Below, one piece after another: positions 3,525 through 53,581 of a stretch of DNA of 64,000 nucleotides. Source of the stretch: Candidatus Nealsonbacteria bacterium. GTDB taxonomy: Bacteria > Patescibacteriota > Minisyncoccia > Minisyncoccales > JANBVM01. Each line of letters starts with the position of its first letter. Within the stretch, counting starts at the first letter, position 1. Below the pieces are notes generated by a model. The model searched no databases. It saw only the letters and a list, made by a program, of their open reading frames with translations, and had not been told where the DNA came from. The DNA lies in assembly GCA_026016225.1 (NCBI GenBank), contig CP061210.1, forward strand, positions 66,000 through 129,999, in the 5' to 3' direction. The position numbers and the translations under genes are program-made.

Positions 3525-3632
3525 ATTGTTATTTTAAAGATAAAATATCTTATCTATTTTATGTTTTATCTTAACATTTTTAAAGGAGGCGACAAGCTTC
3601 CCTTAAACTATTTAATCTTAAATTTTAGCTAT
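3525..3632. repeat. Noncoding direct repeat, copy 2
   Basis: Offset 1007 nt from copy 1. The hairpin arm is degraded here (ggaggcgacaagcttcc). Confidence 0.85.
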
Positions 3633-4421: not shown

Positions 4422-5945
4422 TCAAAAAAATTTCGCTGTTAAATATTCAACCGGAGCAAAATCATCAGTAAGTATAAAAACAGCATCAAAGTTGAGATTT
4501 TCAGGATCAAGAAGTTTTTTGGGTAAATTGCGAATTAGTCTCTTTTCGTGCTGTAAAATCTCTTGACTTCCAAAATCAATTCTCCGAGAGTTATTTAAGC
4601 CGAGAAAAATGAAATTTTGTAAACCTTTTTTATCTGGTGAATCTACTGCAAAAAAATAACTATTTTCAAAAACCGACCTAAAGGTCTTCATCTCCGAAAG
4701 TATAAAGGAGTCAGCTCCTTTATTTAATGTTCCACCAATATTCATTAAAAAGAGGCCATCTTCTGAAAGTTTGCTTTTAGCTAAAGAAAAGAACTCTTGA
4801 GTCGTAAAGTGGGTAGGAATGAAATAAATATAATAAACATCTGCAAAAATCATGTTATAGTTTTGATTTGTCTCTTGAAGAAACCTCCGTCCATCAGTAA
4901 CATGATTGAACAATCTCGGGTCTTCTTGGAACCTGAAATATTTCTTAGCTATCTGGTAAAGTTCTGGTGCGATTTCCACTACATCAATTCTTTTAACATT
5001 ATTTTGATCTAAAAGTAGTTTTCTTGGGGTAGAATAGGCACCCCCTCCTAAAAATAAAGCTTTTTCAGCTTGAGGATTCACAATCTCGTAAATGACATAG
5101 TATTTTGTATATTCAAAGGGTAATTCATCTGATTCAAGAAACGCCGCTCCTTGAAGAGTACCATCAAGACGCAGAACTCTAACTTTTTCATTTCTGATTT
5201 CAATATCCTCAACGATTATCTGATTGTAAAGACCGTCTTTTTGCAAAATAATAGATTCATCCTTTGGTAAAAAAAGAGTGATAAAGCTAAAAAGCAAAAC
5301 AATTATCGTGAAGAGAAATAATTCAGGCCTCTTAAAATAATTTTCATACTTCTCGTCCTTGAAAAACCAACCTCCTGAAACCCCAACAATAATAAGCGTT
5401 AATGCGGTTGAAATAATAATTTTACTTATCCCAAAATGAGGGATAAGAAAAAAACCAGCAAGAAAACTACCGATAATACTTCCAAGAGTTGACCAAAAAA
5501 ACACCTTGCCTGTTACTTTGCCGATTTCTTTCAATTCAAGGGTCTTTAATTTGATAGCAAAAGGAGATATCATCCCTAAGATTAAACTAGGAATGAAAAA
5601 TAAAATCAGACTAGCAATGGGAAGGCCTATCTTCATATCAAGAGTTGTTCCTAAAGTCGGCAATGCAGTTTTTGAGAAGACCTGGATTAAAAGAGAGAAA
5701 ATACCAGCAACAAAAATGAGGAAGAAAAAAACTGAAAATTTAGGATATTTGTCAGCAAAAACACCCCCGAGATAATAACCCAAACTTAATCCTCCTAAAA
5801 CAATACCGATTATACTCGAAATAGTAAATAAAGTATTACCAAAATAAGGAGCAAGTATTCTGATGGCAGTAACCTCAATAATAAGAATTGCTGCTCCAGT
5901 TATAAAAACTATAAAAAAGAGGATATTTCTTTTTAGGATCTCCAT
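4422..5945 (-). CDS. Membrane-embedded spermidine synthase-like (aminopropyl/methyltransferase-fold) fusion protein
   Basis: About 7 N-terminal TM helices, followed by a class I SAM-fold region (LFLGGGAYSTPRKLL, VDVVEIAPEL, DVYY) typical of spermidine synthase family fusions. Confidence 0.65.
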   Translation of the reverse strand: MEILKRNILFFIVFITGAAILIIEVTAIRILAPYFGNTLFTISSIIGIVLGGLSLGYYLGGVFADKYPKFSVFFFLIFVAGIFSLLIQVFSKTALPTLGTTLDMKIGLPIASLILFFIPSLILGMISPFAIKLKTLELKEIGKVTGKVFFWSTLGSIIGSFLAGFFLIPHFGISKIIISTALTLIIVGVSGGWFFKDEKYENYFKRPELFLFTIIVLLFSFITLFLPKDESIILQKDGLYNQIIVEDIEIRNEKVRVLRLDGTLQGAAFLESDELPFEYTKYYVIYEIVNPQAEKALFLGGGAYSTPRKLLLDQNNVKRIDVVEIAPELYQIAKKYFRFQEDPRLFNHVTDGRRFLQETNQNYNMIFADVYYIYFIPTHFTTQEFFSLAKSKLSEDGLFLMNIGGTLNKGADSFILSEMKTFRSVFENSYFFAVDSPDKKGLQNFIFLGLNNSRRIDFGSQEILQHEKRLIRNLPKKLLDPENLNFDAVFILTDDFAPVEYLTAKFF

Positions 5946-7010: not shown

Positions 7011-8687
7011 TTAAAGAGGAGTGTAATATCCTTTAGATTTCAGAACAAACGAAGCTCTCTGATTAAGTCCAAGAGTCTCTTTTATTATAGGAAACTCCAA
7101 TTCAATGTATTGACCTGGAATCAATTCTACTCTTCCATCTTTTAAGCACTTTTTATTAACATCTTTATTTTCAGAATGCTTCAAGTTAGATAGTTTAACA
7201 ACCTTCTCTCTAATATTAGAAGTACTTGAGATATTATTAACATCTGTCAAACCAACAAAACTTAGATTATGAGGTCTGGTCCACTTTGCTCTCAGAGATA
7301 AGGATTTCTGACTTTTTTTAACATATTGGGAAATATCAACCAGACCCAAAGAGAGCTTCTCTCTAGGATGGACAACCTCAACTGGCTTTTCTTTATTTTT
7401 ATCAGCATATATAAATAGATGGATGCTTGGCGAAATTTTCGCCAAAGCACCTTTAGCGTCCTTTGCTTCTTTAATAATATTTGCCACTGCTATAGAAGCT
7501 ACTCCTATCTTTTTCAAGGAATCAATTAATCTGTTTCCAGAAACAATCCTTTCCAGTTTCTGTTCTACCTCTTTAATTCTGGGGTAATCTCCTCTAAGGC
7601 TGGCTCTAAAAATCAGGTGACAGTTTCTCAAGTCCTCAATATTATCAAATCTAATATTTAATATCTCGCCTTTCTCGCCTTTAAAGAATGCTTTATCGTT
7701 TAAAGCAGACAGTTTCTTTGTCCAATCTTTGCCTTTTTTATCTTTAATTGAAGAGGGCAGGACAAGATTTTTGAAAGCAACTATTTTATTATTGATAATG
7801 CCAATGCTTGATTCTTTTGGATGAATAATTTTAATGAATTCAAAATTGTGGAAATAAGAGTGTTCTCTCTCAAACTCCATTACTCTTAAGAGGTATTTCT
7901 TGTTCTTTGGCTGAGGTATTATCTCCAATTTATACAGCTCTTCAATAATAGTATCTTTTCTCAATATGTTTTCAGATTCGGGCAAGATATTGTTATCAAT
8001 AATAAACCTTCTGCCGTTCCAGACTGAAATAAAGGGACAACAACCACTAGTATGGCAGGAGCTATGGGAGCTATGGCAGTTAGTATGGCAGGACTGGTGA
8101 TTGACGTGGCAGGAGCCGTGAGAGCCGTGGGAACTGTGGGAACCGTGGGAACCGTGAGAGCTGTGAGAGCCGTGAGAGCCGTGAGAGCCGTGGGAACCGT
8201 GGGAGCTGTGAGAACTGTGAGAGCCGTGGGAACTGTGGGAACCGTGGGAACCGTGGGAACCGTGGGAGCCGTGGGAGCTGTGAGAACTGTGGGAGCTGTG
8301 AGAGCCGTGAGAACCGTGGGAACCGTGAGAGGCGTGAGAACTGTGAGCAAGGACTCTGCGGGAGCCAAGAAAAGTATGACTTCCATCTCCTGATTCATTT
8401 GAGAAATAACTTGTATGACTGGCTGGAGGAGATACGGGCTTAGCAAGACCTGACTGAGGAATATTATGTCCAGATATGTTTTCAAAAAAGCTTTGATGGG
8501 TAGCAGAAACTGTTTGAGCTAACATTGTTCCTAACATTGCCACCCCTATCCCTAAGTCTAAAACACTTTTCTTACTTATCTTCCCCTCCTCGCTTGTAAG
8601 AAAGGCTTTGATATCCTTTTTTATTGAAGGTAGTTTCTTCATAGTTCTCTTTATGTTATTATTTTTACCGCTTTTATTATAGCCCAA
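7011..8687 (-). CDS. His-Xaa-Ser repeat protein (HxsA-like): signal/anchor, 26 HxS triplets, Cys/His cluster and a roughly 340-aa C-terminal domain
   Basis: Residues 115-192 read HSS HAS HGS HGS ... without interruption, followed by CHVNHQSCHTNCHSSHSSCHTSGCC. The N-terminal hydrophobic segment is LGIGVAMLGTMLAQTVSA. The true start may be the internal MKKLPSIKK. Confidence 0.8.
   Translation of the reverse strand: MGYNKSGKNNNIKRTMKKLPSIKKDIKAFLTSEEGKISKKSVLDLGIGVAMLGTMLAQTVSATHQSFFENISGHNIPQSGLAKPVSPPASHTSYFSNESGDGSHTFLGSRRVLAHSSHASHGSHGSHGSHSSHSSHSSHGSHGSHGSHGSHSSHGSHSSHSSHGSHGSHGSHGSHSSHGSHGSHSSHGSHGSCHVNHQSCHTNCHSSHSSCHTSGCCPFISVWNGRRFIIDNNILPESENILRKDTIIEELYKLEIIPQPKNKKYLLRVMEFEREHSYFHNFEFIKIIHPKESSIGIINNKIVAFKNLVLPSSIKDKKGKDWTKKLSALNDKAFFKGEKGEILNIRFDNIEDLRNCHLIFRASLRGDYPRIKEVEQKLERIVSGNRLIDSLKKIGVASIAVANIIKEAKDAKGALAKISPSIHLFIYADKNKEKPVEVVHPREKLSLGLVDISQYVKKSQKSLSLRAKWTRPHNLSFVGLTDVNNISSTSNIREKVVKLSNLKHSENKDVNKKCLKDGRVELIPGQYIELEFPIIKETLGLNQRASFVLKSKGYYTPL
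8112..8345 (-). repeat. Coding tandem repeat (9-nt unit, CAC-NNN-TCN) encoding (His-Xaa-Ser)x26
   Basis: The plus strand reads gtgggaacc / gtgagagcc / gtgagaact units. The tract is locally much more GC-rich than its surroundings. Confidence 0.9.
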
Positions 8688-13056: not shown

Positions 13057-13911
13057 TTATACCACAAATAGCCGAAGAGAAAAGTCAATTATTTTTTCTC
13101 CAAAAAACATTGCCAGAAAGGTTCCCGTAACCAAAAATGGAGCAAATGGAACCTCTGATTTAAAACCTCTTTTACCACTAATAATTAACATTATTCCGAT
13201 TATTGCTCCTAAAAAAAAGCTTGAAAATAAAGCAACTAAAATGTTTGGGTAGCCGAGTAATAATCCCATAAAAAAAGCTAATTTTACATCTCCTATTCCC
13301 ATACCTTTTCCATTAGAAATCAGAACTATTGCCAAAAAAAATACTGCAGCTAAAACGGCAGAATACATAATGTTTAATATTTCGTATTTTAGATAATGAT
13401 TAAAAAAAATACTAACTACTAAATACCAGCTGCCAGCTGTAAATATAGCAGGATAAACTACTCTATCTGGAACAACATAGTGTTTAAGGTCATAAACAAA
13501 AATAATTATCAAGAAACAAGAAACAAGAAACAAGAAAAGAATATTTAAAAAGCTAAAAATAAGAAAACCAGTCGCTCCGCTCCTTGTAATTGCTTCGCAA
13601 TTAAGAAGCTCAAAAAACAGTGAGTCTATATTCTGTAATACTACTAATAAAAATAAAAAGCCGGTAGCGAGCTCCACCAAGGGATACTGCAGAGAAATGG
13701 GTTTTTTACAATATCGACACCGCCCTTTTAAAATCAGAAAACTCAAGAGCGGAATCAAATCCTGCCAATGTAAAGTATGTTTACAATAAGGACAATAAGA
13801 TTTTTTAACCAAAAAACTTTCTTTTTTTGAAAGTCGATAAATTATACAATTCAAAAAAGAACCAACAATCAACCCAAATATAAAGACAAAAAGATAAATT
13901 AAGGCTTTCAT
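13057..13911 (-). CDS. pilD: Prepilin peptidase (A24 family)
   Basis: CPYCKHTL...CRYCKKPISLQYPLVEL zinc motif and a polytopic membrane body with the GIGDVKL motif. Confidence 0.85.
   Translation of the reverse strand: MKALIYLFVFIFGLIVGSFLNCIIYRLSKKESFLVKKSYCPYCKHTLHWQDLIPLLSFLILKGRCRYCKKPISLQYPLVELATGFLFLLVVLQNIDSLFFELLNCEAITRSGATGFLIFSFLNILFLFLVSCFLIIIFVYDLKHYVVPDRVVYPAIFTAGSWYLVVSIFFNHYLKYEILNIMYSAVLAAVFFLAIVLISNGKGMGIGDVKLAFFMGLLLGYPNILVALFSSFFLGAIIGIMLIISGKRGFKSEVPFAPFLVTGTFLAMFFGEKIIDFSLRLFVV
13565..13605 (+). repeat. 41-nt hairpin element, copy A (inside the pilD coding sequence)
   Basis: aaaccagtcgctccgctccttgtaattgcttcgcaattaag. It encodes NCEAITRSGATGF within PilD. Confidence 0.8.
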
Positions 13912-13993
13912 TTTCTACATTGTATCATTTTCAAACTAAAATAAAAGTTGGCATAAAAATCCTGCCAACTTAGCAATTACAACAATATTATCC

Positions 13994-14449
13994 TTACTTA
14001 CAAGTATCAAGAACAGTAGGCTCAGTGCCAAGAGTGCTTATTCCAGAATCAGAAGCAGTAAAAAAATTACCATTTTCCAGAGTAGCATAGACACAATATT
14101 CTGGACCCGCATCAGAGCTGACGGGTGCACAGTAAGCGCCTTTGCTGCTATTGCAACCATGGCTGCCTCCTCCAGGATCTAGAGGCCAAGGGTCTAAATA
14201 AGTAGGAGTCGTGCTCGTACTGTTTATTCTCTTATTAGCATCTACTGTAATAGCAGGATATTGCACGTCATCACTATATTGCAACTCTAAGGCAGCAGCA
14301 ATCTGCCTGATATCAGACTGTCTTGCTACGTCCCTGGCTTTACTCCTGGCGCCACCTAAAGAAACCAAAACCAATCCGGATAAAACTCCAATAATGGCAA
14401 TAACCACCAATAGCTCAATTAAAGTAAAACCTTTATTCTTTTTAAACAT
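13994..14449 (-). CDS. Type IV pilin (prepilin with class III signal)
   Basis: MFKKNKGFTLIELLVVIAIIG. The start is taken at the internal ATG at 14449; the track ORF extends to 14488. Confidence 0.85.
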   Translation of the reverse strand: MFKKNKGFTLIELLVVIAIIGVLSGLVLVSLGGARSKARDVARQSDIRQIAAALELQYSDDVQYPAITVDANKRINSTSTTPTYLDPWPLDPGGGSHGCNSSKGAYCAPVSSDAGPEYCVYATLENGNFFTASDSGISTLGTEPTVLDTCK

Positions 14450-14471
14450 AGTGTTATTTATAATGCTATCC

Positions 14472-14939
14472 TTACTTACAAGTCTCAAGGTCAGTAGGAA
14501 TAGAACTAAGAGTGCTTATTCCAGAATCAGAAGCAGTAAACCAGTCATCATTTTCTAAAGCAGCAACGACACAATAGTCTCCCCCCGCAGAGCTAGTAAA
14601 TGCACAGTAAGCGCCCTGAGTGCTATTACAATCATGGCTGCCTCCTCCAGGATCCTGGGGCCAAGGCTTTAAATAAGTAGGAGTTATCGTTTCAAGGTTA
14701 GTGGTTATTCTCGCAAGAGTAGGCTCAGTACCTGCTGTAATAACAGGATATTCTCCATCATCACTGTATTGCAACTCTAAGGCAGCAGCAATCTGCCTGA
14801 TATCAGACTGTCTTGCTACGTCCCTGGCTTTACTCCTGGCACCACCTAAAGAAACTAAAACCAATCCAGATAAAGTTCCAATAATGGCAATAACTACCAA
14901 TAGCTCAATTAAAGTAAAACCTTTATTCTTTTTAAACAT
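14472..14939 (-). CDS. Type IV pilin, tandem paralog
   Basis: The N-terminal ~60 aa are nearly identical to the neighbour (one substitution). The middle is divergent, and DPGGGSH.CNS..GAYCA is shared. Confidence 0.85.
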   Translation of the reverse strand: MFKKNKGFTLIELLVVIAIIGTLSGLVLVSLGGARSKARDVARQSDIRQIAAALELQYSDDGEYPVITAGTEPTLARITTNLETITPTYLKPWPQDPGGGSHDCNSTQGAYCAFTSSAGGDYCVVAALENDDWFTASDSGISTLSSIPTDLETCK

Positions 14940-15107
14940 ATTGTTATTTATAATTATTTATAACGATTATTTCAGATAAATTTTTTGTTTAAAAAATTTC
15001 TATGGTGTGAATAACTTTTATTCGCATTGCTTTCTTTTATTTTCTAATTATAGCATTATTTTGTCAACCCCGGTAGAGAAATTTTGACTGACCTCGCCCC
15101 GAAAAAA

Positions 15108-19406: not shown

Positions 19407-19445
19407 AACCAGTCGCTTCGCTCCTTGTAATTGCTTCGCAATTAA
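19407..19445 (+). repeat. 41-nt hairpin element, copy B (intergenic); a partial second copy lies at 19452-19474
   Basis: aaccagtcgcttcgctccttgtaattgcttcgcaattaa, followed by aaaccattagcttcgcaattaat. Confidence 0.8.
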
Positions 19446-19469
19446 AAAAGGAAACCATTAGCTTCGCAA

Positions 19470-19988
19470 TTAATAGGAATGAACTCCTGTTATTATATTA
19501 AAACTAAATAACTTTTTTCCTTCTGAGTAAGAAAATGAAATATTATCAACTTCAATTAATCTGGTTGACCTTTCTATAATTGAAAGAAAGTTTTTAAAAT
19601 CAGAGTAATCACCCTTTAAAAAAAGATTAATCTTTCTGGTTTTAATTTTCTCTTCTTCAGTAGAAGGAGTTGAGCCTGGAGATACTCTTTCTAAAATGAG
19701 CCCTGACCGGGAAGCTGTTTTTTGAAAGAGATTCAAAAGCTCTGTCAAGGAAGAATCTTTAGGCAGGGCAGATTCAATTTTTAAAAAGGACTCTTGTTTC
19801 TCTTTAATTTCATCTAAAATTCCTTGAAGTTCTTGAAAGTGCTTTTCGTAAGAGCGAAGTTCAAAATCTTTCTTAAAAATATTTTGCTTTAAATAATTTA
19901 AAGCCCTGTATTCAGGCAATAATAAAGCAAATATAAGTAAAAGAGATAAAGAAAAAGTAATTACAATATAAAGTGGATAGTTTCTCAT
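19470..19988 (-). CDS. PilO-like pilus assembly protein
   Basis: N-terminal TM helix plus coiled-coil, with size and operon position matching PilO. Confidence 0.45.
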   Translation of the reverse strand: MRNYPLYIVITFSLSLLLIFALLLPEYRALNYLKQNIFKKDFELRSYEKHFQELQGILDEIKEKQESFLKIESALPKDSSLTELLNLFQKTASRSGLILERVSPGSTPSTEEEKIKTRKINLFLKGDYSDFKNFLSIIERSTRLIEVDNISFSYSEGKKLFSFNIITGVHSY

Positions 19989-33551: not shown

Positions 33552-36500
33552 TTAAACACAGACCATTGAAACAACTTTATCTTTTTCTCCTAATTTCATA
33601 ATTCTTACTCCCTGGGTTGCCCGGCTCAATTTTGAAATTGACCCAATCTTTATTCTAATTACGTGGGCTTGTTGGGAAACGGCTATTAAATCTTCTTCTT
33701 CCGTCAGAATTTTTGAAGCAACCAGCCTCCCTATTTTAGGGATTATTTTCGCTGTCTTAACTCCTACTCCACCTCTTTTCTGCAAACCATACTCTTTTAA
33801 ATCTGTTCTTTTACCATAACCATTTTCAGTCACTACCAATAAATATTGTTTAACTTTTAATTTTTTGCCTTTTTCCGCCAACTGGCGGATTGGTTTTATT
33901 ATATCCATTCCTATTACCTCGTCTCCTCCCTCAACCTGAACTCGAGATGAAGATTTTTTCAATCTGATTCCTCTTACTCCGGCGGCTGACCGCCCCATAG
34001 GTCTTATATCTTTTTCTCTAAACCTTATTGACTGACCATTTTTAGTTACTAAAATTATTTCATCTTCTCCCGTAGTTTTACAAACTTTTTTCAGTGAATC
34101 TCCCTTTTTTAAGGAAATAGCGATTAGTCCCGAACGACGAATATTTTTGAATTCCTCTAAAGCGGTTTTTTTGATTACCCCGTTTTTAGTTACCATTACT
34201 AAATATTTTGCCTCGATTTTTTCACTCTTTTTGCTTAAAGATATTAAAGATAATACTTTTTCTTGAGGGGAAATTTCTAAGAAATTAAGTAAACCCCTGC
34301 CCTTGGCAGTTCGGGTTCCCTCGGGGATTTCGTAAGCTGGAATTCTGAAAACCTTTCCTGAGTCAGTAAAGAATAAAAGACTATCATGAGTGTTGGCAAT
34401 CAAAAAGTGTTCCACGATATCTTCTCCCACTGTTTTCATTCCTAAAATTCCTTTCCCTCCTCTTCTTTGAAGCTTATATGTCTTAGGGTTTATTCTCTTT
34501 ATGTAACCACCCTGAGTTAGAGTAATAATCGTTTCTTCTCTGGGAATTAAATCTTCTTCTGATATTTCACCTATTTTCCTTTTAAAAACTTTTGTTCTTC
34601 TCTCATCTCCAAAGTTTTCTTTCACTTCTTTTAATTCTTTTTTAATAACGCTTTTTATCTTTTGGGGACTCTTTAAAACAGCTGTTAGTTCTTTGATTTT
34701 AGCACGCAACTCTTTCAGTTCATCTTCAATTTTTTTCCTTTCTAACCTTGCTAAAGCTGCTAGTTTTGTATCTAAAATTGCGTTAGCCTGAATTTCTGTT
34801 AGTTTAAAACGCTTCATTAAGTTTTTCTTTGCGTTTTCTCTATCTATTGATTTTTTAATCGTTGATATTACCGCGTCAATTTTTTGCAAACACTTGTGTA
34901 AACCTTCTAAAATATGGGTTCTCTCTTTTGCCTTTTCTAATTCATGCTTAATCCTCCTTAAGACAACTTCTTTCCTGTGTGAAATAAAATATTCTAAAAC
35001 CTCAACAAAATTTAAAATTTTGGGTTGAATTCCATCAACCAAAGCTACCGTATTTAAATGAAAAGTTCTCTGTAAGTCGCTAAATTTAAAAAGACGATTC
35101 AAAATCCTATTAGCTATTACGTCTTTTTGGAGTTCTATGACAATTCTCATTCCTTCTTTGTCTGATTCATCTCTAATGTCTTTTATTCCTTTAATTCTTT
35201 TTTCTGAAACCAATTTAGCAAATTTGGCAAGCAAAGTTGATTTTTGAACCTGAAACGGAATTTCAGTAATTAAAATCTTTTGTTTTCCTTTTTCATCTTC
35301 AATAATTTCTGTTTTACCTCTTACTAAAATAGGTCCTTTACCTTGAGAATAAACTTCCATTATCCCTCTCTGGTCATAAATGAAACCTCCCGTTGGAAAA
35401 TCCGGACCCTGAACAAATTGAAAAACATCCTCGACATCAGCTTTTGAATGTTCGACTAAATAAATTAAAGCATCACAGATTTCATTTAAATTATGGGGAG
35501 GAATATTGGTTGCCATCCCAACCGCAATTCCCAAACAACCATTTAATAAAAGTTGGGGAAGAGGAGAGGGCAAAACAACGGGTTCTTTTCTCGTACCGTC
35601 ATAATTATCAATAAAATCAACTGTATCTTTTCCAATATCTTTTAACATTTCTTGACCCTCTTTCGAAAGCCGCATTTCTGTATTGTGACTAATAAATCCA
35701 TTAGAAATGAAAGAATGACATATACTATCTACTCTTAAAGAATAAACTCGTTCCTCTCCTTGTTGTTTTACAGAAACAATCTGCTCAAATAAATAATGGT
35801 TTTTTAAGAAATTCTTAACAAGCTTTAAATCGAATTGGTCCAGTATTTGTTCCAAACGATTATAATATTTTCTAAGTTTTGGATATCTATCCAAATTGTG
35901 GGTTTTAAGCCAAACTTTATCTGCTCGCTTTATGTTCAATCCCTGATACTTTTCCCTTATATACTGGGCAAGATACGGAATATAATCAGTTTTAGACATT
36001 ATTCTGTGATCGGAATTAAGTTTTGAAAATTCCTCTAATCTTTGTTTCTTTCGTCTTGAAATAAAACCAATTTGTTTTTTAAATAAACCAAAATTGTTAT
36101 GCCCATGAATAAATAATCTTAATGTTGTTCTTGTTCTTTCGGGTCTTAAAAATGAATCTATGCCAAATCTTAAAAATATGATTTGTAACTGCTCAAGTAA
36201 TTTCTTACTACAAGAAGTATAGACTATTTCTATTGATCTTTGTTTTTTATCTTTATTGCGGTGCTTACAAAGATAGATAGATCCATCTCCCTCAAAAAGT
36301 CCTTTCAGAAAAGCAGATGTTGATTTTTTGCTTGCATGAAATATAATTTCAGGGATTTGTTTTTTAGAAGCACGAGCTCTTTTTAATCCTAAACTTTCCA
36401 GAAATTCAGTAATATAATTTGAATGAACTTCTAAAGCTGTATGGTCCTGTTTTCCGTAACCTAAAGGCCCCCTCTTAAATTCATGTAATCGGCAAGTAGG

Positions 36501-37439
36501 AAAAACTTTTTTAAAACTATTTTTAAAAGCATTTATGAATTCTTTGTCTGTGTTTGCGAAACCAAAGCATTTTTCTTTAGATTTCTTATGGGAAACATAG
36601 CCCTCTGATAAAATTGCTCCCAGCAGAAAAGCTAAATCAGAATTCATCCGAGAGGGTAGTTTGTGAATAACAAAATGTCTGTTTTTTATTTTGGGATAAT
36701 ATTTCTTAAGACTTGGTTCTTTTCGCTGCCATAAAGTATTGTTGTTTCTATCAATAACTGCAAAATTGCCCTTTTTAATTTCTTTTAATAATTTCCATTT
36801 AAATATAGGTCTGCCCTCGTTATCTTTTTGAAGAGTTAAGATTGGATGATTATTCGTTCCTTTCAATTTATAACCCCTAAATGTTTTCACTTCTAAAACA
36901 GGATGAACACCTGAATCAAACCACTTTGATGCTGAATTTATTTTTTGAGCAAAGGACAAAACATTTAAAGAAATATTCTCTTTATCAGAAATTTCATCAA
37001 TTCTTTCCAAACAACGATTGGTCACTATAATAGAATCACCAGTAATACAATATCTCATCGCCGCATATTCACCTGGGTCATCAATTGAGCCCATGTTTCC
37101 TTGACCCTGAATCAAAGGGTATCTCAGGGAAAAATCCTGTGCCATTCTTACTGCAGCTCCATACACTGCCTGGTCGCCGTGTGGATGATAGCGGCCCAAG
37201 GTGTTTCCTACGACAGTTGCTGATTTTCTGGATTTTGCATCATGACGCAATCCCATATCATACATGGCATACAAAATTCTTCTCTGGACAGGTTTTAAGC
37301 CGTCTCTAACATCGGGCAAAGCTCGAGAGATAATCACTGACATAGCATAATCAATATATGATTCCTTCATCTCTTTGGTAATCTCTCTTGTTTGTACTTT
37401 AGCAAGTTCCTTATTTGGTTCTTTTTTATCTTTTTTCAT
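33552..37439 (-). CDS. gyrA: DNA gyrase subunit A, interrupted by a 456-aa intein
   Basis: [19 protein letters not shown], then AAMRY|CITGDS...FISHN|TEMRL. The C-terminal beta-pinwheel repeats are present. Confidence 0.9.
35682..37049 (-). mobile_element. GyrA intein with an intact-looking LAGLIDADG homing endonuclease domain
   Basis: Cys1 (tgt at 37049-37047), block B TNNHP, LAGLIDADG motifs [10 protein letters not shown] and [10 protein letters not shown], terminal SHN followed by Thr (aat at 35684-35682). Confidence 0.85.
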
Positions 37440-53306: not shown

Positions 53307-53394
53307 ATAAATTTTTTAAAAATTCAGATTTTCTCTTACCCTTCCTCTGTTTATTTTACCCAAAATCAGCTGAAAGTAAAGGTAATCGTATCCT

Positions 53395-53433
53395 GCCACA
53401 GCGAGGCGCTTTACCAATTAAGCTACGACCACC
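53395..53433 (-). pseudogene. tRNA-His-like 5' half (G-1 through anticodon loop ctgtggc); no 3' half found
   Basis: g-gtggtcg-ta-gctt-aattggta-aagc-g-cctcg-ctgtggc, after which the tRNA structure ends. Confidence 0.4.
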
Positions 53434-53484: not shown

Positions 53485-53525
53485 CTTAATTACGTAGTAA
53501 TTACAAGGAGTGAAGCGACTGGTTT
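53485..53525 (-). repeat. 41-nt hairpin element, copy C (inverted orientation, intergenic within the tRNA cluster)
   Basis: The reverse complement reads aaaccagtcgcttcactccttgtaattactacgtaattaag. The hairpin stem carries a compensatory GC-to-AT change. Confidence 0.8.
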
Positions 53526-53581
53526 GTAATACTAACCCCCTAGTGCCCCCATCAGGATTTTTACCTCGCACCAATTCATTA

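Follow-up and report, generated by a model that had tools for sequence, protein, structure and literature searches.

Copies of the element in the window

The DNA considered here, 64 kb of contig CP061210.1 from a Candidatus Nealsonbacteria bacterium (positions 66,000 to 129,999; "the window" refers to this whole stretch), contains three copies of a short repeat that joins a non-palindromic core to a small hairpin. One copy is embedded in pilD, the gene of the prepilin peptidase, one lies between two genes of the pilus operon, and one lies in a cluster of tRNA genes. We identify the repeat as a probable member of a family of interspersed repeats, very small (~42 nt), non-coding and non-autonomous, and selfish in character, which behave like the Rickettsia palindromic elements (RPEs) and fall in the size class of the repetitive extragenic palindromes (REPs). 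The window has a base composition of 34% G+C and is 99.9% identical to a closed genome of 653,831 bp (CP179892.1), which has a closed sister genome of 694,748 bp (CP179891.1); homologues of the window PilD are labelled Patescibacteria. The copies and their immediate surroundings are listed below.

13564..13605, plus strand: copy A, a 42-nt unit composed of AA, the 39-nt core AACCAGTCGCTCCGCTCCTTGTAATTGCTTCGCAATTAA and G; read antisense and in frame as (L)NCEAITRSGATGF of PilD
13587..13603: hairpin of copy A, TAATTGC-TTC-GCAATTA
13057..13911, minus strand: host gene of copy A, PilD (prepilin peptidase/N-methyltransferase), an open reading frame (ORF) of 284 aa in which the insert forms residues 104-116
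19407..19445, plus strand: copy B, intergenic in the pilus operon and antisense to transcription, between a PilO-like gene and a 90-aa gene, ending 12 nt upstream of the ATG of the latter
19446..19473, plus strand: short form of 28 nt, AAAAGG AAACCATTA GCTTCGC AATTAA, in tandem with copy B
53485..53530, minus strand: copy C with an ATTACA left extension and the hairpin TAATTAC-TAC-GTAATTA; tRNA-Lys on one side, a truncated tRNA-like remnant and then tRNA-His on the other

A preliminary description of this DNA had reported three copies, and its 39-nt consensus matches the window at exactly three sites with 0 mismatches (13566-13604 and 19407-19445 on the plus strand, 53486-53524 on the minus strand), with a chance expectation of 0 and no match in any of 100 dinucleotide-preserving shuffles. 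Covariance model R1 scores copies A, B, and C at 69.5-70.4 bits. The next-best match in the window, at 35737-35785, reaches 17.9 bits; it lies inside the gyrA intein and was rejected as a fourth copy, being attributable to chance. With the full covariance model and filters off, the density is thus 3 copies per 64 kb, or roughly one per 20 kb. The window copies are 39-42 nt long and have sharp limits, with similarity between copies ending 1-3 nt beyond the 39-nt core when each is compared with its flanks by BLAST.

Other particulars of that description also stand. Copy A does lie within the prepilin peptidase frame, the 284-aa minus-strand ORF, and copy C is inverted in the tRNA cluster, between tRNA-Lys and tRNA-His. 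The 7-bp stem is as described, including the double change in copy C, where an A-T pair replaces the G-C pair of copies A and B. What had been called a partial extra copy beside copy B is a 28-nt insertion (19446-19473) relative to strain L104, whose PilD is 96% identical.

Insertions inside protein-coding genes

Whether the segment of PilD that corresponds to copy A is lineage-specific had been posed as a test, and comparison with other PilD proteins (an alignment of 20, with a motif scan of the 120 closest homologues) shows that it is. No trace of the element is present in 117 of the 120 homologues. Besides the window, a single aligned protein, P0001 (96% identical), carries an intact 14-residue segment at the site of copy A, and P0002 (73% identical) retains a remnant at the same site from which 12 nt of the hairpin have been deleted. 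A third protein, P0012, carries NCEAITKSTAAGF approximately 65 residues further on in the same frame, at a position that is empty in both the window and P0002; this is an insertion independent of copy A. The motif scan recovered only P0001 and P0012. At both PilD sites the insertion amounts to exactly 14 residues, or 42 nt, which corresponds to the 39-nt core plus a partly conserved flanking CA and G, and therefore leaves no room for a longer target duplication. Homologues of the copy A host carry the PF06750 and PF01478 prepilin peptidase domains. In an AlphaFold2 model of PilD (mean predicted local distance difference test, pLDDT, of 79), helices at residues 75-104 and 113-144 enclose a stretch with pLDDT below 50 at residues 105-111, so that the insert is modelled as a low-confidence loop or coil between two predicted membrane helices.

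Among the loci collected from other genomes and metagenomes, 12 copies have at least 40 open codons on each side. Pfam places nine of these in genuine genes, in which domains are matched on either side of the insert, and some apparent intragenic copies were set aside as artefacts of ORF extension. The further hosts are as follows.

TsaD: three hosts and two sites; two copies in the same loop, read as LIAKQLQGAKRLV, and one elsewhere on the other strand, read as TSRFAPCNCKAIK
MnmA, RsmA/KsgA, SecA, archease, a DUF3048 protein, and a lytic transglycosylase (SLT): one copy each

The three TsaD host proteins are 49-53% identical to one another. Eleven of the 12 intragenic copies are antisense to the consensus strand, and three of the four stop-free frames of the element are used; within genes, only copies in a stop-free frame persist. 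The usual length is a multiple of three, and the host protein gains a loop of 13-14 residues. Intragenic copies make up about one in seven of all copies (~15%) although the genomes are mostly coding, which points to strong purging of gene insertions, with survival only in tolerant loops.

One of the TsaD genes (L004) also holds a second, unrelated 54-nt repeat, a GC-rich hairpin (GCCCGCCGAAGGCGGG) that occurs twice in frame (42-95 and 1005-1058) and encodes KEGARRRRE(G/S)GGSGVVKL. These genomes thus contain more than one family of in-frame hairpin repeats. In two further loci, L037 and L057, copies of the element are flanked by similar hairpins, GCCCGAAGGC.

Architecture and covariation of the hairpin

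Over 82 distinct copies, the consensus is (ATTACA)AACCAGTCGCTTCGCTCCTTGTAATT-(variable hairpin top)-AATTAAG. Each copy consists of two parts, the non-palindromic core AACCAGTCGCTTCGCTCCTTGTAATT of ~26 nt and an adjacent hairpin, followed by AAG, and the unit spans 39-46 nt, usually about 42 nt. Although the search pattern included neither the six bases left of the core nor the G right of it, each of these positions is moderately conserved, at 0.5-0.9 bit. The hairpins are far more variable, with 46 different ones among the copies and tops that range from 6 nt (CTGCGG) to 27 nt, while the AATT/AATT foot is constant.

Covariation was assessed from pair counts on an alignment of 79 distinct copies, with a slid 3' partner and 500 shuffles as controls. 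Helix cells are paired in 96.7% of cases, compared to 16-47% when the 3' partner is slid, and changes on both sides occur in 30 cells, compared to 7.4 in the shuffles, none of which reached the observed covariation score. The sixth helix pair (35-47) illustrates the variation, being GC 44, CG 15, AU 9, UA 3, and GU 2 times. A diverged subfamily alters both sides of the stem, from TAATT/AATTA to TCATT/AATGA. Because the helix covaries and this subfamily changes in step, the palindrome is maintained by compensatory change. The proposal that selection acts on the structure thus holds insofar as the hairpin covaries over the collected copies, with the qualification that the target could be single-stranded DNA rather than RNA. 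Hairpin tops are found in either polarity (GCTTCGC in 16 cases and GCGAAGC in 8, with similar pairs for other tops), and a DNA palindrome with a centre able to flip therefore fits better than one specific RNA loop.

To the left of the core, an ATTACA-like flank is present in ~55-60% of copies. This flank (ATTACAA) could form a second helix with the hairpin foot (TTGTAAT), in which 73% of cells are paired compared to 35-51% when slid, but that putative helix shows no covariation, and variants with CTGTAATT show no compensating change. The ends of the element, AACCAG... and ...AATTAAG, are not complementary, and there are no terminal inverted repeats (TIRs).

Distribution among genomes and metagenomes

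The expectation of further copies beyond the window was borne out both in Patescibacteria metagenome-assembled genomes (MAGs) and in metagenome contigs. A 19-base degenerate pattern, scanned against one genome per species, gave 17 matches. Thirteen of these are in Patescibacteria MAGs, labelled as Nealsonbacteria, Wildermuthbacteria, the Parcubacteria group, one Saccharibacteria, or simply 'bacterium', and in all 13 places the similarity continues over the whole element. The remaining four, in other phyla, show no similarity beyond the pattern and are roughly as many as 19 fixed bases would produce by chance; they were rejected as true copies. Species genomes with the element have one or two exact matches to this pattern, and most Patescibacteria species genomes have none. 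A 24-base pattern found 86 loci on metagenome contigs, and 82 distinct copies remained after removal of duplicates. Since model R1 detects 17 further, diverged copies in the same loci (e.g. AACCGTTCGCTTCGCTCACTGTAATTTGCTTCGCAAATTAA and the short AACCGCTTCGCTGTAATTGCTATGCAATTAA), a family wider than the exact-pattern set exists. Two closed genomes contain the element, as do independent assemblies from many projects, and no shared flanking gene fragment, which had been named as a possible source of the similarity, links the copies.

The exact pattern had no match in viral contigs, nor did blastn find the element in plasmid and phage collections. Rfam, searched at gathering thresholds on the window and permissively on six loci and the copy C region, yielded no family match, returning only tRNAs and chance matches. 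When the four translated frames were joined as one query against a set of 5.8 billion proteins, one candidate shared words and none scored. A search of the literature found neither the sequence nor a description of such repeats in Patescibacteria. The best explanation of this distribution is an element family specific to Patescibacteria, mostly to the Parcubacteria group, and apparently undescribed for them.

Indications of turnover, and flanking sequence

Sites A, B, and C are all occupied wherever they can be compared (in the two closed genomes and in short-read contigs; site A in CP179891.1 only), and copy C is unchanged across four related assemblies. The only strain difference at these sites is the 28-nt short form, and only L104 differs: the short form is a clean indel that is absent from L104 and present in the sister closed genome CP179891.1 (L114). 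It looks like a copy that has lost the stretch between two GCTTCGC motifs. Short-read contigs of the same strain break inside copy B, from both sides. Other loci extend the range of forms, which includes tandem, truncated, nested, and back-to-back arrangements: a full copy is nested after AAACCAGTCGCT in L051 and L056, two cores of opposite orientation share one hairpin in L090 and L096, and four copies occur within 14 kb in L039.

No adjacent direct repeat offset stands out above the general similarity of the flanks as a target duplication. Direct words of at least 8 nt are shared by both flanks in 24% of copies and in 5% of random sites, a control unmatched for intergenic composition, and the flanks are often short tandem arrays on both sides (e.g. 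L033, L086, L064, and L091). The empty PilD site in P0012 already has a tandem-type repeat, GTTTTTGAG...GTTTTTGG. Such flanking repeats may reflect a target preference.

The pilD region of the window contains repeats of its own. A heptamer, AACAAGA, occurs four times at 13515-13551, 15 nt from copy A, and encodes part of a PilD membrane helix. Two tandem pilin genes with 80-93% DNA identity lie next to pilD (13984-14954), and the corresponding position in CP179891.1 (L114 10171-10629) has a single pilin gene.

Neighbouring genes and candidate enzymes

Intergenic copies between co-directional genes are found 23 times in one orientation and 16 times in the other. As there is no orientation preference, action at the level of DNA is favoured over action at the level of the transcript. 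No T-run follows the hairpin on either strand, which together with the orientation counts speaks against a terminator and against other strand-specific functions in RNA. The 108 nearest genes belong to 131 Pfam families, none seen more than twice; these are ordinary housekeeping genes, and no constant neighbour gene family is enriched among them. A longer parent element sharing the same ends was considered and rejected, as one-sided flank similarity arises only from shared host genes.

Y1 transposases were sought by tblastn with three queries (two real sequences and one approximate sequence of the kind encoded by REP-associated tyrosine transposase, or RAYT, genes) in 660 kb of locus sequence. 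The IS200/IS605 TnpA gene that was found (L043 1760-2167, plus strand) lies 1.1 kb from the element in a mobile-DNA cluster next to ruvA; it was rejected as a linked transposase, since it has GC-rich end hairpins of its own that are unrelated to the element. In the same cluster, an rve-type DDE transposase gene (L043 663-1604, minus strand) ends 25 nt from the element. Stand-alone GIY-YIG nuclease genes (~90 aa) lie 0.2-9 kb from the element in six distinct loci, none of them in the window.

L072: 4772-5041 and 2671-2910, GIY-YIG genes
L074: 1606-1839, GIY-YIG gene
L089: 5049-5318, GIY-YIG gene
L022: 11514-11711, GIY-YIG gene
L024: 5060-5314, GIY-YIG gene
L087: 9796-10008, GIY-YIG gene

Other features of the window and of related loci

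Between copy C and tRNA-His, the window holds a truncated tRNA-like 5' half (53381-53432, minus strand) that has a sub-threshold score of 19.7 bits with the tRNA model and is uncalled by ARAGORN. The GyrA ORF of 1295 aa (33552-37439, minus strand) has a large homing-endonuclease-like insert after its conserved N-terminal region, an apparent intein. A long tandem array with a 9-nt period and ~36 units occupies 8058-8381, and a 77-nt direct repeat (2518-2594 and 3525-3601; 97% identical, 3' end AAAGGAGG) looks like an upstream region duplicated ahead of two adjacent genes. GC skew along the window is irregular. In L037, three ~45-nt tandem repeats just upstream of the ribosomal protein S5 gene (5611-5760) inflate the ORF call and give the repeated peptide ARTLFLATLEIRTLPS.

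Comparison with known repeats

The first reported likeness was to the RPEs. Those numbered RPE-1 to RPE-8 (Ogata et al. 2000, reviewed in PMC2229807) are given, in the parts of the review that treat them, as repeats of 105-146 bp with one end-to-end stem-loop and TIRs of ~12 bp. [quoted passage not shown] Like RPEs, the Patescibacteria element is a non-coding interspersed repeat of small reduced genomes that occurs both between genes and in frame within conserved protein genes, where the inserted peptide occupies a tolerated loop; RPEs likewise are not known to have a transposase. The element differs in being ~42 nt, a third of the size, in having no TIRs, and in carrying a 7-bp hairpin at one end beside a 26-nt core. 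It has no sequence similarity to RPEs, and its hosts belong to another phylum and to many divergent lineages rather than to one genus. The behaviour is thus RPE-like, with in-frame copies in TsaD, SecA, MnmA, RsmA, archease, and others, whereas the differences in size and architecture place the element outside the RPE family.

REPs are closer in size (20-40 bp) and in general plan, with one short hairpin and a conserved unpaired tag at one side. They share with the Patescibacteria element an occurrence as singletons, dimers, and clusters, some copies inside ORFs, the lack of a target duplication, and a proposed single-strand DNA mechanism. REP families bear a GTAG or CGTC tag, the GTAG class occurring with RAYT genes, and have been reported from Proteobacteria, Cyanobacteria, Chloroflexi, and the PVC group, not from Patescibacteria (PMC3733652). 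In the element described here, neither GTAG nor CGTC abuts the stem, which has CTCCTTG before it and AG after it; 26 nt are conserved and unpaired, compared to 4 in REPs; and the stem is A+T-rich, whereas REPs are usually G+C-rich. The tblastn search of 660 kb of locus sequence found no RAYT gene or REPtron.

MITEs are 100-200 bp long, with TIRs, TA ends, and target duplications (PMC2229807, PMC5896051), and in-frame fusions to genes are documented for the 107-bp form of Correia/NEMIS, for ERIC, for YPAL, and for the QMITEs of Coxiella (PMC2229807, PMC5896051). The resemblance lies in being small and non-autonomous and in carrying open reading frames that are fused to those of the host. The Patescibacteria element, by contrast, has no TIRs, no target duplication, and no longer element that shares its ends. 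It belongs to none of the three groups, RPEs, REPs, or MITEs.

Elements of the IS200/IS605 type, from the work of Barabas et al. in 2008 and related studies, reportedly have asymmetric ends and a subterminal hairpin that is read by shape, without inverted repeats or target duplication, and a short guide sequence at the hairpin's 5' foot is said to pair with the flanking target, a fixed tetra- or pentanucleotide on the left. The hairpin, the asymmetric ends, and the lack of TIRs and of target duplication are shared, and the frequent left flank ATTACA is complementary to TTGTAAT at the hairpin foot. The differences are that IS200/IS605 elements have two different hairpin ends and the present element a single hairpin, that no TnpA is linked to it, and that its flank-foot pairing shows no covariation, diverged variants being uncompensated.

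DNA uptake sequences (DUS in Neisseria, USS in Pasteurellaceae) have cores of 9-12 nt and occur about once per kb. They too are clade-specific, independent of orientation, and found in coding DNA in tolerated frames; the Patescibacteria element is far longer, rarer, and structured, and arrives as a block insertion.

Proposed origin and spread of the element

The element has been inserted repeatedly, at many unrelated sites and in either orientation, between genes and within them. Insertion rather than common ancestry is indicated because 117 of the 120 PilD homologues are without the element, because TsaD has been entered at two sites, and because the 28-nt short form is an indel between strains. 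We suggest that the element is selfish DNA that spreads both inside a genome and from one lineage to another, and that an enzyme supplied in trans would read the core by sequence and the hairpin by shape. The substrate would most plausibly be single-stranded, hairpin-forming DNA. The lack of TIRs and of target duplication, the asymmetric ends, and the hairpin at one end together form a signature of the HUH/Y1 type, and single-strand transposition as in IS200/IS605 or REP/RAYT-like systems, which offers the closest analogy in architecture, may supply the mechanism.

Several observations weigh against an interpretation as a proliferating selfish repeat. No transposase or other enzyme is tied to the element, the sole Y1 gene in the 660 kb of locus sequence being the IS200-type gene of L043. 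The apparent copy number is low (three in 64 kb, and one or two exact matches per species genome), which is odd for a repeat that proliferates. The invariance of the 26-nt core in the 82-copy set was imposed by the search pattern, so that its apparent conservation is partly forced. No strict pair of empty and filled sites at high nucleotide identity was found, so that both the precise ends and the lack of target duplication are judged from protein alignments and a population profile. The hairpin is weak, at -4 to -5 kcal/mol as DNA (-4.3), with a z-score of about -1.4. In P0002, moreover, the core is intact while the flanks have diverged, which may point to constraint or gene conversion and not to neutrality alone.

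A host-serving role in RNA deserves the most attention among the alternatives, and we regard it as unlikely. Here the element would be a cis-acting sequence that affects the stability or processing of polycistronic mRNA or tunes translation of the next gene, with the intragenic copies as by-products. Many copies do lie in very short operon spacers, such as those before rplF and before secY in L037, and in many the distance from the end of the copy to a start codon is a few to 25 nt; AAGGAG is present on the antisense strand, the hairpin covaries, and the antisense RNA folds somewhat better, at -8.4 kcal/mol. Yet the distance from AAGGAG to a start codon is never below 14 nt, in about half of the copies the motif is on the wrong strand, single-sequence fold z-scores are not significant, and no Rfam family matches. 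Orientation relative to the flanking genes (23 and 16) shows no preference, neither strand has a T-run after the hairpin, and a top present in both polarities would give different RNA loops. Still less probable is a DNA recognition sequence, either an uptake signal for competence through the type IV pilus and ComEC or a site for a nucleoid or replication protein, multiplied by uptake bias and recombination. It would account for copies in both orientations and in coding and non-coding DNA, and for conservation across lineages within one clade only, and Patescibacteria have pilus and competence genes, as in the window. What it explains poorly is a conserved stretch of ~26 nt plus a hairpin at about one per 20 kb, the arrival of copies as separate blocks of 42 nt instead of through point substitutions, and the fact that most Patescibacteria species genomes have no exact copy; a top of variable length is also hard to reconcile with a fixed site for a dimeric protein. 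It is the orientation data, the density, and the pattern of block insertion that lead us to rank both of these readings low.

Two further possibilities carry very little weight. A length of 36-40 nt with a hairpin at one end recalls some class 2 repeats of clustered regularly interspaced short palindromic repeat (CRISPR) systems, but an origin as solitary CRISPR repeats or array remnants is highly improbable given copies inside essential genes, no cas gene among the 108 neighbouring genes, and no repeat-spacer periodicity in ~100 loci, where copies are single and exact or form irregular tandem and partial arrays. The chance that the repeat reflects random similarity or an artefact of sequencing or assembly, such as an adapter or a chimera, is practically negligible: short-read contigs do end inside the element, but zero chance matches are expected, two closed genomes and independent assemblies of many projects contain it, and copies diverge with compensatory changes while host frames stay open.

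Within the favoured interpretation of a small selfish repeat, we raise a more specific and decidedly tentative possibility, that the element is the functional end of a minimal and so far undescribed transposition system in Patescibacteria, moved in trans as a single-stranded DNA hairpin by a nuclease or recombinase and currently spreading horizontally among Parcubacteria lineages. If so, the 42-nt unit would be among the smallest mobile DNAs proposed, with a length that would never shift the reading frame. A divergent HUH enzyme might move it, with the small GIY-YIG proteins as a weaker candidate. The recipient lineages, whose housekeeping proteins are only ~50% identical, would have had essential proteins seeded with new loops.

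Implications for Patescibacteria

The genomes of Patescibacteria rank among the smallest and most compact of any bacteria and are considered poor in selfish DNA. A repeat found nearly unchanged in many of these lineages and located inside SecA, TsaD, MnmA, RsmA, and PilD suggests that these genomes are still being invaded, and its insertions offer a route by which proteins in this group gain loops. Sharing of the element further suggests that genetic exchange connects distant lineages, and the element could be used as a marker of such exchange among uncultured lineages. There are practical consequences as well: short-read assemblies break at the element, and gene calls become inflated or split, for instance where an ORF is extended at its N terminus across an intergenic copy. 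Should the enzyme responsible for its movement be found, the element would represent a very compact DNA insertion system, specific by both sequence and shape.

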